Below, in pieces: positions 40,129-45,048 of a stretch of 64,000 bases of DNA (position 1 is its first letter; each line of letters begins with the position of its first letter). Source of the DNA: Escherichia coli (GTDB lineage: Bacteria > Pseudomonadota > Gammaproteobacteria > Enterobacterales > Enterobacteriaceae). Made by a program: the position numbers and the translations under genes. Below the pieces are notes generated by a model. The model ran no database searches. It was given only the letters and a program-made list of their open reading frames with translations, and was not told the origin of the DNA. The stretch is taken from assembly GCF_009931435.1 (NCBI RefSeq), contig NZ_CP043414.1, one strand, 5' to 3'.

Positions 40129-40556
40129 TTGTTATTTACTTAATGCGTTTGTGAGATCCAGTTCTTGTTGCGCTCCTTTTATGAGTCATGCCATATAAAG
40201 TGACTGGCGCAAGGAGCGCGCAGGGGGCGGCCAATCGCCGCCGCCCCCTGCACCCCCGGGCTCTGGCGAACAAAATCGCCGCTGCGCGGTACCCTCGGCT
40301 TATCCCTTGCGGCTACCGGGTCGGGCGCGAGGTAACATCCCTGTAAAACGCGCCCTCAGCCCACATCCATGTGGGCTGCCCCGGCCTTCAGGGAACGCCT
40401 CGGCGATTTTGACGCCACCAACACCCGTGCAGTCTTTCGTTTCAAAGCAAAAACAATTTTTCGATCATATTTAAGCTACCACTGAACAAGCCTCATAACT
40501 CCATTTGCGCCATCCCTCACCGCGCGCTAGCATGATATTTCACAAAGGGAGGTCGT

Positions 40557-41351
40557 ATGGATCTGTTGTACCGGGTAAAAACGCTTTGGGCCGCGCTGCG
40601 CGGCAATCATTACACCTGGCCTGCTATCGATATCTCTCTTCCCGGCAATCGCCATTTTCATCTGATTGGCAGTATTCATATGGGCAGCCACGATATGGCT
40701 CCCCTGCCCCCCCGTTTGCTCAAAAAGCTCAAAAACGCCGATGCGCTGATCGTCGAGGCGGATGTTTCCACCAGCGATACGCCTTTTGCCAATTTGCCTG
40801 CCTGCGAGGCGCTGGAAGAGCGCATTAGCGAGGAGCAATTACAAAATCTGCAAAACATAAGCCAGGAGATGGGTATTTCTCCATCGCTCTTTTCTACCCA
40901 ACCGCTGTGGCAAATCGCGATGGTTCTTCAGGCAACGCAAGCGCAAAAACTGGGGCTGCGGGCAGAATATGGTATCGATTACCAGCTATTGCAGGTGGCG
41001 AAGCAACAACATAAACCCGTGATTGAACTGGAAGGGGCAGAAAACCAGATTGCCATGTTGCTCCAGCTCCCTGACAAAGGACTGGCGCTGCTGGACGATA
41101 CGCTGACCCACTGGCACACCAACGCTCGTTTGCTGCAACAAATGATGAGCTGGTGGCTGAATGCGCCGCCGCAAAATAATGAAATAACGCTGCCCAATAC
41201 GTTCAGTCAGTCGCTGTACGATGTGCTGATGCATCAGCGAAATCTCGCCTGGCGGGACAAATTACGCGCCATGCCGCCGGGACGCTATGTGGTCGCGGTC
41301 GGAGCTTTACATCTGTATGGAGAAGGGAATTTGCCGCAGATGTTGCGCTAA
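40557..41351 (+). CDS. ybaP: TraB/GumN-family protein YbaP
   Basis: 264-aa ORF positioned between copA and ybaK as in K-12. Confidence 0.8.
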   Translation: MDLLYRVKTLWAALRGNHYTWPAIDISLPGNRHFHLIGSIHMGSHDMAPLPPRLLKKLKNADALIVEADVSTSDTPFANLPACEALEERISEEQLQNLQNISQEMGISPSLFSTQPLWQIAMVLQATQAQKLGLRAEYGIDYQLLQVAKQQHKPVIELEGAENQIAMLLQLPDKGLALLDDTLTHWHTNARLLQQMMSWWLNAPPQNNEITLPNTFSQSLYDVLMHQRNLAWRDKLRAMPPGRYVVAVGALHLYGEGNLPQMLR

Positions 41352-41433
41352 AAAAATGGCCAATATCGCTATTGGCCCGTCAAAGAGGAATTTCATTTTT
41401 TTATTATTATGCCGTCACTTTAAGCGACGGTGT
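41350..41433 (-). ncRNA. chiX: ChiX (MicM/SroB) Hfq-dependent small RNA
   Basis: The reverse complement of 41350-41433 reads ACACCGTCGCTTAAAGTGACGGCATAATAATAAAAAAATGAAATTCCTCTTTGACGGGCCAATAGCGATATTGGCCATTTTTTT, matching the ChiX sequence as I recall it, including the 3' terminator hairpin and U-run, in the expected ybaP-ybaK spacer. Confidence 0.85.
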
Positions 41434-41554: not shown

Positions 41555-42034
41555 ATGACACCCGCAGTTAAATTACTCGAAAAAAACAAGATTTCGTTTC
41601 AAATCCACACCTACGAGCACGATCCGGCTGAAACCAATTTTGGCGATGAAGTCGTCAAAAAATTAGGTTTGAATCCGGATCAGGTCTACAAAACGCTGCT
41701 GGTGGCAGTGAACGGTGATATGAAGCACCTTGCAGTGGCCGTTACGCCGGTCGCAGGTCAACTGGATCTTAAAAAAGTAGCAAAGGCGTTGGGTGCCAAG
41801 AAAGTTGAGATGGCCGATCCGATGGTTGCGCAGCGTTCGACGGGGTATCTGGTTGGGGGGATTAGCCCACTGGGGCAGAAAAAACGCCTGCCGACGATTA
41901 TCGACGCCCCCGCGCAAGAGTTTGCCACTATTTTTGTTTCTGGCGGCAAGCGCGGGCTGGACATTGAACTGGCGGCAAGCGACCTGGCGAAGATCCTCGA
42001 TGCCAAATTTGCTGATATCGCTCGTCGCGATTAA
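41555..42034 (+). CDS. ybaK: Cys-tRNA(Pro)/Cys-tRNA(Cys) deacylase YbaK
   Basis: 159-aa [27 protein letters not shown]... of the YbaK/ProX trans-editing family. Confidence 0.9.
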
Positions 42035-42057
42035 GTGATGCACACGGAAGATGAGAT

Positions 42058-42858
42058 GTGGAAAGGATTACAGAGACATTAAGTATCGCTTGTGCAGATG
42101 AGATACCGGATATCGCCTTACTTCGGCAAACATCGAGAGAAAAGGTATTACATCTGCATTTTGCCAGCGAAGCAGAGAGGTATCGTGAGGAATTCGGGCT
42201 GGTGCTGAAAGCACAGCTCGATGAATTTGTTGTTGGCATGCATTCTGCCGACCCGGTTATCAGGATCGCCAGATTAATATCGCTTGAAGAGATTAACCGC
42301 CATCAGGATTTTTTCGAACACTGCGCGAAAGAATATCGTAAGCTGGCGACAGAGCTTATATTTGCATTGGCTGAACAACTGAACGTTGAGATGGCGGAAA
42401 ATAACCCGCTAGTTACCTTTGCCCCCTTCAAATGCAACCGTAAGCGAAAAGGCAAAATGGGAAAGTGGCAGTATTGTTTTCATGGTTTTCATTGTGCATT
42501 TGAGAATAAAAAAACAGAGCAAAATATTGAAGTTCCCCTCGCCTACGGCTTTGATTTCGGCGATCTGGACCCGTATTTTTTTTCCGTATTTATCAAATCG
42601 ACCCCCGCCTGGCAGCCTCTGCCAGTGGCTATTTACGATGATTACCACGACGGCAGCAGGATCATTCAACAACTGCTGGCGCTGGGAAAGTTAGAAAAAA
42701 TCCCTTCACCGATCCCACAATACACGGGTGTTGCTGCGGTAGATTGGTCCAATGTCGACATCGCAAGTTTTCGCTCAACACTGGAGAGTCGCCTGCACCG
42801 ATGCAAATTACGCTGGCTTTTGAAGCATGTAAAAAACTCACAAAGGAGCGAAAGATGA
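42058..42858 (+). CDS. Hypothetical protein A (~266 aa; start uncertain), first gene of a two-gene module between ybaK and ushA
   Basis: Track ORF begins at a GTG 24 nt after the ybaK stop; the first in-frame ATG is ~60 codons in. No transmembrane segment or NTPase motif seen. Cys/His cluster CNRKRKGKMGKWQYCFHGFHC could be a metal-binding knuckle. Its stop overlaps the next gene's ATG (ATGA). Confidence 0.5.
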   Translation: MERITETLSIACADEIPDIALLRQTSREKVLHLHFASEAERYREEFGLVLKAQLDEFVVGMHSADPVIRIARLISLEEINRHQDFFEHCAKEYRKLATELIFALAEQLNVEMAENNPLVTFAPFKCNRKRKGKMGKWQYCFHGFHCAFENKKTEQNIEVPLAYGFDFGDLDPYFFSVFIKSTPAWQPLPVAIYDDYHDGSRIIQQLLALGKLEKIPSPIPQYTGVAAVDWSNVDIASFRSTLESRLHRCKLRWLLKHVKNSQRSER

Positions 42859-43358
42859 AATTTGACCATCTTGTTGATGTTAGCTTCCACAATTTTGTCT
42901 TTAACGGAAAATTCGATTTTGTCGAACTGGGGCAAACAATGGCATGGTTGGAACAAAACTTTATTGAGCCGGACTCTAAAAATGATATGGGAAATGGTTT
43001 TTATATCTGGCTATTTGGTAATGTTGAGTTTCATTTCGAAAACAACAAGCTATATATGATTTGGTACGATTATCTGAGCCAAATCCATTTGGGCAAAGCG
43101 ATCCGATTTGATAAAGGAATATTGAATAACGTCGCTGAGTTGAACGTTACGCGTGTATTTAACATGCTTGTTAACGAAGGCGCTGATCTGCAAATCCACC
43201 GTCAATCGCCCCATACACTATTAATCCACGTCAATCGCTCAGGCGTGACACTTTGGTTTGAAGCAGATGAAGAACAGCCCGGTGAACCGCAGAATTATAT
43301 GCTGATGGCATTTGGTTTGACACATCGCGATTACGATGCAAGATTTCAATATTCATAA
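42855..43358 (+). CDS. Hypothetical protein B (167 aa), translationally coupled to protein A
   Basis: ATG at 42855 is preceded by a strong AGGAG Shine-Dalgarno (caaAGGAGcgaaagATG); the track ORF (42744) extends upstream in frame but I prefer this start. Aromatic-rich soluble protein (MKFDHLVDVSFHNFVFNGKFDFVELG...); no motif I recognise. Confidence 0.5.
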   Translation: MKFDHLVDVSFHNFVFNGKFDFVELGQTMAWLEQNFIEPDSKNDMGNGFYIWLFGNVEFHFENNKLYMIWYDYLSQIHLGKAIRFDKGILNNVAELNVTRVFNMLVNEGADLQIHRQSPHTLLIHVNRSGVTLWFEADEEQPGEPQNYMLMAFGLTHRDYDARFQYS

Positions 43359-43395
43359 ATGGCGGCGTCATATCATGACGCCGCGACAGGGTTCA

Positions 43396-45048
43396 TTACT
43401 GCCAGCTCACCTCACCTTTCGGTTCATAGACACTCACATCCAGCGGCGAGTTTTTCTGGATATACGCTTTCAGCACTTCAGCATCAATAAAGCCGGTATT
43501 CACATAGCCCGGTTTGTTATCCAGACGCGGATAGCCATCACCGCCAGTGGCATTGAAGTTTAATGTCGCCATACGGTAAGTTTTCGCCGGATCGACCGGT
43601 TCGCCTTTGATTTTCAGGTCGTTCAGTTTGCCGTCTTTCGCCACAAAGCTAACGTTGGCAAATTGCGGATAGGCACCAGAATCAGGCTTCATTTGTGCGA
43701 CGGCGGTCAGGTAATCAATCACCTCTTTACCGGTCATGTCGGCATACACCACCACATTGCCGAATGGCTGCACTTTCAGCACATTTTTATAGCTGATATC
43801 ACCTGCTTCGATAGAATCACGAATTCCGCCTCCGCTCATCACCGCAAAGTCGGCACCAGTGCGATCCATTTGTGCTGCCAGAATCAACCGCCCCATATTG
43901 GTCTGTACAAAACGCACTTTGCTGCGGTCGCCTTCCAGACGACCATTGGTTTCGCCTATTTTCACTTCCAGCTGCGCTTTGCCTTTGTTCTGGAACGGTG
44001 ATAACAGCGAAATCATTTGCTGGTTTTCGGCGATTTCAGGGGTGTAAAGCACACGCTCGCTTTTCCCGTCTTCCCAGGTCACTTTCTTCTTCAGGTTTAC
44101 CGGAATCAACTGGTAGTTGACCATTTTCATTTCGCCGTTGCGAAACTCAAAGTCGGCCCGACCCACGTACTTGCCCCACTCATGCGCCTGTACAATCCAG
44201 ATGCCATTTTGTTGATCCGGTTTGCATGGCGTACCAGGAACGTAATCGACCTGTTTTTTATTTTCTGCCGCCATACAGACTGGATCTTGCGAGTGACCTC
44301 CGACGATCATCGCCAGCGATCCGGCAGGCAGCGCGCGTGCCATCTCCACATCGCCCGGTGCATTAGAGCCGTGCTCACCATTGTCGTAATGCCCCATATG
44401 GGTTGCCGCGATAATAATGTCTGGCTTTTCTGTCTGTTGCAGCTCCTGAATCACCAGCTTCGCTTCATCAGCGGGCTTACGAAATTCGATATCAGTGAAG
44501 TATTCCGGGTTACCAATTTTGGCTGTGTCATCGGTTGTCAGCCCAATAACGGCAATTTTCAGATCCTGACGCTTAAACAGCGCCCATGGTTTAAACAGGC
44601 GCTCACCAGTGCTTTTTTGGTAGATATTGGCGGAAAGCAACGGGAACTTAGCCCACTTTTCCTGCTGGCGTAATACGGTGAGCGGGTTATCAAATTCATG
44701 ATTACCGATCGCCATTGCATCATAGCCTACCAGATTCATACCGCGAAAATCAGGTTCGGCATCCTGTAAGTCGGACTCGGGCACGCCAGTATTAATGTCG
44801 CCACCGGAAAGTAGCAGCACGCTACCACCTTCAGCCGCAACCTCTTTGCGAATACCGTCCACCAGCGTTTTTTGCGCCGCAAGACCATATTCGCCATATT
44901 CATTACGCCAGAAATGACCATGATGATCATTGGTATGCAGAACTGTAATTTTGTAGGTTTTATCCTGCTCATAAGCCAGAGCAGTTTCACTCGCCAGTGT
45001 AAATGTGGTTAACAGTGCTAACGCCACGCCCCGCTGCAATAATTTCAT
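43396..45048 (-). CDS. ushA: Periplasmic UDP-sugar hydrolase / 5'-nucleotidase UshA
   Basis: 550-aa ORF with signal peptide and calcineurin-like metallophosphatase motifs (DHHG, GNHEFD). Confidence 0.95.
   Translation of the reverse strand: MKLLQRGVALALLTTFTLASETALAYEQDKTYKITVLHTNDHHGHFWRNEYGEYGLAAQKTLVDGIRKEVAAEGGSVLLLSGGDINTGVPESDLQDAEPDFRGMNLVGYDAMAIGNHEFDNPLTVLRQQEKWAKFPLLSANIYQKSTGERLFKPWALFKRQDLKIAVIGLTTDDTAKIGNPEYFTDIEFRKPADEAKLVIQELQQTEKPDIIIAATHMGHYDNGEHGSNAPGDVEMARALPAGSLAMIVGGHSQDPVCMAAENKKQVDYVPGTPCKPDQQNGIWIVQAHEWGKYVGRADFEFRNGEMKMVNYQLIPVNLKKKVTWEDGKSERVLYTPEIAENQQMISLLSPFQNKGKAQLEVKIGETNGRLEGDRSKVRFVQTNMGRLILAAQMDRTGADFAVMSGGGIRDSIEAGDISYKNVLKVQPFGNVVVYADMTGKEVIDYLTAVAQMKPDSGAYPQFANVSFVAKDGKLNDLKIKGEPVDPAKTYRMATLNFNATGGDGYPRLDNKPGYVNTGFIDAEVLKAYIQKNSPLDVSVYEPKGEVSWQ

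Follow-up and report, generated by a model that had tools for sequence, protein, structure and literature searches.

What occupies the junction between ybaK and ushA on an Escherichia coli chromosome (contig NZ_CP043414.1), and do the two genes found there work as a pair? The preliminary description of this DNA, a stretch of 64,000 nucleotides that we call the window, had pointed to two overlapping genes, here named A and B, and had taken them for a coupled module of the toxin-antitoxin, toxin-immunity, or anti-phage kind. Our analysis favors a different answer. The insert would be a small accessory islet just 3′ of ybaK that has been exchanged horizontally. Its two genes, both with cytoplasmic products, would each stand alone and be independent in evolution, united in Escherichia alone, and the product of B could be a protein of the inhibitor type. 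The structural and evolutionary part of this explanation we regard as probable. Taken whole, with the inhibitor-type B included, it is the best overall explanation that we can offer, and we judge its chances to be about even.

An insert with two overlapping genes

The gene order in the window is copA, ybaP, ybaK, A, B, ushA, and fsr (Table 1). In K-12, ybaK and ushA are convergent and are separated by a spacer of 36 bp that holds a different hairpin; in the window, the spacer measures 1361 bp, and the widened gap that had first drawn attention to this locus is therefore real. The insert has a GC content of 0.44 (0.46 in A and 0.39 in B) compared with about 0.50–0.55 in its flanks, which bears out the lower value suspected earlier. 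Likewise, a renewed look at the insert found no integrase, insertion sequence (IS) element, or flanking direct repeats. The two open reading frames (ORFs) are codirectional and joined by an ATGA stop/start overlap as described, and this overlap is kept in all three of the Escherichia alleles considered here. The strong ribosome-binding site (RBS) that had been assigned to B is also present, as an AAGGAG located 7 nt 5′ of the ATG. In favor of the GTG start of A at 42058, homologues in other phyla share the N terminus of the protein, with an M-x-R-x-T-E motif at the start position. RefSeq is inconsistent in its choice of start for A, giving a protein of 218 aa in a genome of sequence type 131 (ST131; L002 3303–3959) and of 266 aa in UTI89 (L152 1519–2319); the sequence 5′ of A is intact in both.

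Downstream of B lies a hairpin with a perfect 10-bp stem. The hairpin itself was correctly recognized in the preliminary description, but its position is 43362–43384, one base to the right of the 43361–43383 given there. Its folding energy is −18.4 kcal/mol with a z-score of −3.8, it was reported as inverted repeat I12, and it is conserved in a third Escherichia allele (locus L155). The terminator scan did not call it because there is no T-run on its 3′ side. The hairpin of the K-12 spacer is absent from the window, and the new hairpin comes after B; it is likely that it serves as a shared transcript end in place of the K-12 hairpin. In the 23-bp gap between ybaK and A, the scan for promoters and terminators found no promoter-like or terminator-like site. 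From these sequence features, we infer that transcription reaches A and B from ybaK by read-through and ends at the new hairpin.

Table 1. Coordinates of the insert, its genes and signals, and the genes on either side
Feature	Position in window	Strand	Description
Accessory insert	42035–43395	+	1361 bp in place of the 36-bp K-12 ybaK/ushA spacer, from alignment with the K-12 empty site
Gene A	42058–42858	+	GTG start, 266 aa, cytoplasmic DUF6896 protein
Gene B	42855–43358	+	ATG start, 167 aa, acidic, cytoplasmic; unnamed family; predicted tandem BLIP/YfeY-like fold
Translational coupling region	42840–42858	+	AAGGAG ribosome-binding site of B within the 3′ end of A, plus ATGA stop/start overlap
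Hairpin	43362–43384	.	between the B stop and the ushA stop; perfect 10-bp stem, 3-nt loop
ybaK	41555–42034	+	23 bp between its stop and the A start; transcription probably enters A and B from here
ushA	43396–45048	-	

Distribution and exchange of the islet in Escherichia

Of 5426 complete E. coli genomes, 774 (14%) carry the insert DNA, each in a single chromosomal copy at a fixed site. The idea that the block is accessory at a backbone junction thus stands, for it is not universally conserved. Copies are 98.3–98.7% identical to that of the window, and carriers include UTI89, O25b:H4 ST131 strains, and A0 34/86. The insert DNA was not found in the plasmid or phage collections. The genomes nearest to the window by their ushA–fsr flank have an empty site, so presence of the insert is polymorphic even between close relatives. 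The order copA-ybaP-ybaK-A-B-ushA is also seen in Escherichia whittamii, with an A that is 92% identical, and in L155, with an A that is 88% identical. Both proteins are already catalogued, A under the RefSeq label "DUF6896 domain-containing protein" and B as "hypothetical protein," yet they are uncharacterized.

Comparison of the window with E. whittamii (L016–L019 and L021) gives a synonymous divergence (dS) of 0.08–0.13 for A and B versus 0.27–0.52 for the flanking genes. Synonymous divergence is thus lower in the cassette than around it by a factor of four to five, with an abrupt step at the right edge. When L155 is compared with E. whittamii, the identity is 98.8% for B and only 90.1% for A. 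The step in dS, together with this contrast between A and B, indicates that the cassette was exchanged between lineages by recombination after their split. The cassette is a mosaic made by recombination, in which the histories of A and B are partly distinct.

Could the two genes be decaying remnants with no current function? Among the Escherichia alleles, the ratio of nonsynonymous to synonymous divergence (dN/dS) is 0.31–0.50 for A and 0.19–0.21 for B, roughly 10 times the 0.02–0.055 of the flanking core genes. Residues that are conserved in the A family have changed (E213Q in ST131 and R230W in the window), and in E. coli N96 a 1-nt insertion frameshifts B into two annotated fragments while A stays intact (L001 3956–4460). 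Each of these observations would suit decay. However, dN/dS is well under 1 in three allele comparisons, 38 of the 40 rows sampled from the E. coli genome search have both frames intact, and the overlap, the RBS, and the hairpin are all conserved. We consider decay highly improbable. By the substitution pattern, A and B are real genes under purifying selection that is weaker, or relaxed, relative to core genes.

Protein A and its family

The sole Pfam match of A is DUF6896 (PF21837), which covers residues 87–215 with an E value of 1.3e-13 and which was matched by all 37 aligned relatives in the Pfam scan. DUF6896 is itself a family of no assigned function, and we found no paper that mentions it. 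To this core, the subfamily of A adds a conserved N-terminal domain of ~85 aa and a variable basic tail. About 258 full-length relatives of ~260 aa are 38–59% identical, and nearly all come from Bacteroidota, with Leminorella and Escherichia in addition. Searches of NCBIfam, PADLOC, PHROGs, and PDB, the last also with the family profile, returned no match for A. There is no transmembrane segment (peak 19-residue hydropathy of 1.05) and no Walker A motif, in agreement with the preliminary description, which had seen neither a membrane segment nor a P-loop in A or B.

The Cys/His cluster that had been noted in A does not hold up. Its spacing had been given as C-x17-C, but the pattern is C126-x13-C140-x-H142-x2-H145-C146, and it is not a conserved metal cluster. 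Neither C126 nor C140 is ever conserved, and H145 and C146 are variable among distant relatives in Planctomycetota and in marine gammaproteobacteria; H142 alone among the residues of the cluster is universal. A zinc-binding site was rejected on these grounds. The invariant residues of the family include W137, H142, G143, H145, Q155, E158, D171, and an LDPYFF motif. As far as conservation can tell, W137, H142, Q155, E158, and D171, together with the LDPYFF motif, resemble the site of an enzyme or of a ligand more than they do an immunity surface. We think that A works on its own and that its function is possibly enzymatic.

In one metagenome-assembled genome of Bacteroidota (L083 6007–7272), the DUF6896 core is fused to a C-terminal extension of ~280 aa, which has no match in Pfam, NCBIfam, PADLOC, or PDB. 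An RCNITH motif in this extension led us to consider a HEPN-like Rx4H site, which those four resources do not support.

Protein B and its predicted fold

A full HMMER search of cluster representatives recovered 172 B-family proteins at E ≤ 1e-3, mostly of 150–180 aa; a word-indexed search with B returned close Escherichia-type relatives only. Like A, B had been described as uncharacterized, and so it is: A matches a domain family of no assigned function, and B has no sequence match in Pfam, NCBIfam, PADLOC, PHROGs, or PDB. The B-family profile gave nothing significant against PDB sequences. A Pfam scan of 84 aligned members of the B family was also without a match, including to the clan of the BLIP/YfeY group. 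B has no transmembrane segment (peak 19-residue hydropathy of 0.85), no signal peptide, and no Walker A motif. Profile–profile comparison showed no relation between the A and B families.

The AlphaFold2 model of B built with the 84-member family alignment has a predicted local distance difference test (pLDDT) score of 94.4 and a predicted template modeling (pTM) score of 0.88; a single-sequence model reaches a pLDDT of 44. In the model, B is composed of two tandem repeats, each a helix plus an antiparallel sheet, in a BLIP-like arrangement. In the structural match list, YjgB/DUF4309 scores 8.8, the N-terminal domains of two SCP proteins (CAP_assoc_N) score 8.2 and 8.1, YfeY scores 7.7, and the type VI secretion system (T6SS) immunity protein TsiN scores 7.5. 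These are accompanied by BLIP-like proteins at 5.9 and 5.2, BtiO at 5.4, YdcD at 5.2, and OsmE and BamE at about 5. For the suggestion of an antitoxin or immunity protein, the confident BLIP/YfeY-like model cuts both ways: the fold is of an inhibitor type, but it is neither a helix-turn-helix (HTH) nor a ribbon-helix-helix (RHH), as the DNA-binding domain of a type II antitoxin would be.

The ECOD classification joins DUF4309, CAP_assoc_N, DUF1131/YfeY, BLIP, and SmpA_OmlA as a BLIP-like/yfeY-like group, which now lies inside the cystatin/monellin homologous group, and a role in enzyme inhibition has been described for several BLIP-like families (PMC11836899). B matches this superfamily (YjgB/DUF4309, CAP_assoc_N, YfeY/DUF1131, BLIP, and BamE/OsmE; related to the Pfam clan PepSY) structurally. 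The members named here are secreted proteins or lipoproteins, whereas B lacks a signal peptide and its family goes undetected by the Pfam models of the clan (0 of 84 members). By its model, B brings to a known inhibitor fold a sequence family that has had no name. Most near-invariant positions of this family hold hydrophobic residues, Gly, or Pro, and E58 and D72 are the only polar residues conserved. Such conservation would be more expected of a binding scaffold than of an enzyme.

With a BLIP/YfeY/cystatin-like fold, a hydrophobic conserved core, and few conserved polar residues, B may be a cytoplasmic protein-binding inhibitor. The closest parallel is TsiN of Acidovorax citrulli (PDB 9j9w), the immunity protein to the T6SS DNase effector TseN, which resembles B in fold at a sequence identity of 8%. 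TsiN is cytoplasmic and sterically blocks the active site of TseN (PMC12574953). Most likely within such a scheme, B would be of an orphan-immunity type and would cover the active site of an incoming enzyme toxin as TsiN does. We offer this cytoplasmic inhibitor or orphan-immunity role as a tentative proposal from a predicted structure, one more readily doubted than believed. The two proteins also differ in setting: TsiN is encoded directly after its toxin in a VgrG/PAAR operon, whereas neither toxin genes nor secretion genes lie near B or its relatives. Our literature search found nothing on a double-wing fold of YdcD or on orphan immunity with BLIP.

The two families outside Escherichia

The genomic contexts of A were scanned with one genome per species, which gave 70 loci, 69 of them outside Escherichia. 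A B-family gene lies close to A in only one of the 70, that of Escherichia, even at a relaxed threshold. No neighbor of A is conserved across genera, and synteny is seen only within a genus. In Leminorella, A is solitary between ubiB and yaeQ, without a codirectional partner. In another enterobacterium, whose YbaK is 92% identical, a 58%-identical A also lies 3′ of ybaK; it is followed by a GC-rich sequence like a repetitive extragenic palindrome, and the 64 bp left on the contig contain no start of B. This second case of A after ybaK led us to consider a functional tie between A and YbaK, which is unsupported, as A is found elsewhere in Leminorella and in Bacteroidota. Several genomes have two A-family loci, such as those of Flavobacterium sp. 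14A and F. jejuense.

For B, contexts were taken from six exact look-up loci and from 61 metagenome loci found by a scan with a 15-sequence alignment, with a recognizable B gene in 59. None of the 61 metagenome loci or the six look-up loci has an A homologue. The GC content of B-family loci runs from 0.28 to 0.69, and the family is therefore taxonomically broad. Genes tightly upstream of B homologues are mostly housekeeping genes (GalT, PrkA kinase, RecQ, nicotinate phosphoribosyltransferase, Rho, 6-phosphogluconolactonase, and a transporter), and small codirectional neighbors include DUF4288 proteins, AraC regulators, Arr, a GNAT enzyme, and others. The 20 Pfam families listed for B neighbors include no toxin or immunity family, and ten further small neighbors have no meaningful NCBIfam match. 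Neither the A nor the B family was found on IMG/VR viral contigs. Because each family occurs without the other outside Escherichia, we take A and B to be evolutionarily independent.

Several features of the B loci stand apart from this question. Small DUF4288 proteins (for example, L111 1042–1812) make up the largest neighbor cluster in L091–L151, with 27 ORFs, and we found no paper that mentions DUF4288. Tandem B-family hits occur in four metagenome loci (L109, L110, L139, and L145), although in L139 the two hits are short and adjacent (62 and 67 aa) and could be pieces of a single gene that is split. In L130 (5508–9155) and L138, prkA and a B-family gene are followed by six codirectional ORFs of ~200 aa with minimal gaps; these have no NCBIfam match, and several are paralogous, in a cluster of 8.

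Weighing the explanations

A number of observations weigh against the explanation that we favor. With respect to the independence of A and B, the ATGA overlap in three Escherichia alleles would suit a functional partnership, and there are two cases outside Escherichia in which both families occur, unlinked. The first is a Leminorella-like sample, SRR29134153, in which homologues of A and B sit in unrelated contexts (L011 and L012). Its B, at 65% identity, is the closest B homologue outside Escherichia, and its A, on a different contig of the same run, is of the Leminorella type. The second is Fulvitalea axinellae DSM 100852, with distant homologues of B and A on separate large plasmids, pFA3 (L153) and pFA10 (L154); in a scan of 72,556 plasmids, Fulvitalea was the sole B match and one of two A matches. 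Such unlinked co-occurrence hints at a link between the families. With respect to B as an inhibitor, a fold of this type is also found in lipoproteins and secreted proteins of other roles, such as BamE, OsmE, and YfeY. No recognizable toxin lies beside a B-family gene in ~65 loci, and so it is from fold resemblance alone that an immunity role can be argued. Our literature search found no expression or phenotype data for DUF6896 or for the RefSeq protein accessions.

As a separate observation on the Fulvitalea locus, small acidic hypothetical genes flank the A-like gene on pFA10, and umuDC and a type I restriction-modification system are adjacent to it.

These observations can be read in more than one way. 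A and B could form a self-contained toxin-antitoxin or enzyme-inhibitor pair in which B binds and blocks A, an enzyme that is harmful or under tight control. Such a pair would make sense of the overlap and strong RBS kept in three alleles, of the inhibitor type of the B fold, of the invariant polar residues of A that resemble an active site, and of the presence of both families in the Leminorella-like sample and in Fulvitalea. In its outline, the islet does resemble a type II toxin-antitoxin locus, with two small, adjacent, codirectional, overlapping genes in an accessory position. It differs from one in that the families are unlinked, no toxin or antitoxin domain is present, and B can apparently be lost alone. 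The position of B downstream would also fit an effector-immunity pair of the T6SS, contact-dependent inhibition (CDI), or Rhs kind, but A has no toxin features and is solitary elsewhere. The Pfam scan found no secretion or trafficking domain in A, and its neighbors here are ybaK and ushA. What decides against a self-contained pair, in our opinion, is that 69 of the 70 species loci of A have no B-type neighbor, that A of Leminorella has no codirectional partner of any kind, that 0 of 61 B-family metagenome loci have an A homologue, that N96 retains A with a frameshifted B, albeit as one natural case, and that no known toxin, antitoxin, or DNA-binding domain was found. We consider such a pair quite unlikely.

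A gentler version is that A and B are partners in a non-toxic function, for example an enzyme with an accessory or regulatory subunit, linked in Escherichia and scattered elsewhere. Translational coupling, the unlinked co-occurrence in two other lineages, and purifying selection on both genes are all consistent with this possibility. Yet within the cassette A and B differ in recombination history, no linkage of the two is seen outside Escherichia, B appears to be dispensable in N96, and the co-occurrence amounts to three cases with no control for taxonomy. On balance, a non-toxic partnership is unlikely. It is also conceivable that B represents a new family of cytoplasmic BLIP/cystatin-like inhibitors whose target is A, an enzyme, in a dispersed system whose members are usually encoded apart but co-inherited, linked in Escherichia, unlinked in the Leminorella-like organism, and on separate plasmids in Fulvitalea axinellae; to this proposal we give little credence, and we regard it as very unlikely.

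The last of the readings to be considered is a new two-gene anti-phage defense system. What first brings defense to mind is that the pair is compact, accessory, and low in GC and that its site is variable. The annotation of defense systems gives this reading no help, as no family of PADLOC-DB 2.0 matches A or B at E ≤ 1. Moreover, A and B are unlinked across taxa, their neighbors elsewhere are housekeeping or miscellaneous small genes rather than defense islands, no nuclease, NTPase, or sensor domain was found in them, and neither family appears on phage contigs or in phage records. An anti-phage system therefore strikes us as extremely improbable.

Thus, the coupled module proposed in the preliminary description is unsupported: the linkage is specific to Escherichia, B is broken in N96, and no toxin, antitoxin, trafficking, or defense domain is present. 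Each of the toxin-antitoxin, toxin-immunity, and defense readings fails on at least one count: linkage is not conserved, no relevant domain is present, and A appears, from one natural case, to tolerate the loss of B. The explanation that we prefer remains an exchanged islet with two independent genes, of which B would be of the inhibitor type.

Neighboring features

Upstream of the islet, the small RNA ChiX (Rfam sroB, 82 bits) lies at 41350–41433 on the minus strand, between ybaP and ybaK as in K-12, and its terminator was detected by the terminator scan at 41377–41358. The gap between copA and ybaP (40129–40556) lacks both ybaQ of K-12, which is HigA-like, and the higB/higA genes of ST131 and L155. 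This gap is filled by ~430 bp of non-coding DNA with a GC content of 0.59, and N96 has the same state. In ST131, the higBA toxin-antitoxin pair is located two genes upstream of the islet.

Implications

The main practical result is a negative one: this locus should not be taken as a candidate for a two-gene defense or toxin-antitoxin system without experiments. Many E. coli lineages of clinical importance, ST131 and UTI89 among them, form a large group that is marked by the islet. Should B prove to be an orphan immunity protein, it would be a further example of chromosomal protection against interbacterial toxins, and a family that no database describes would gain a name and a fold.

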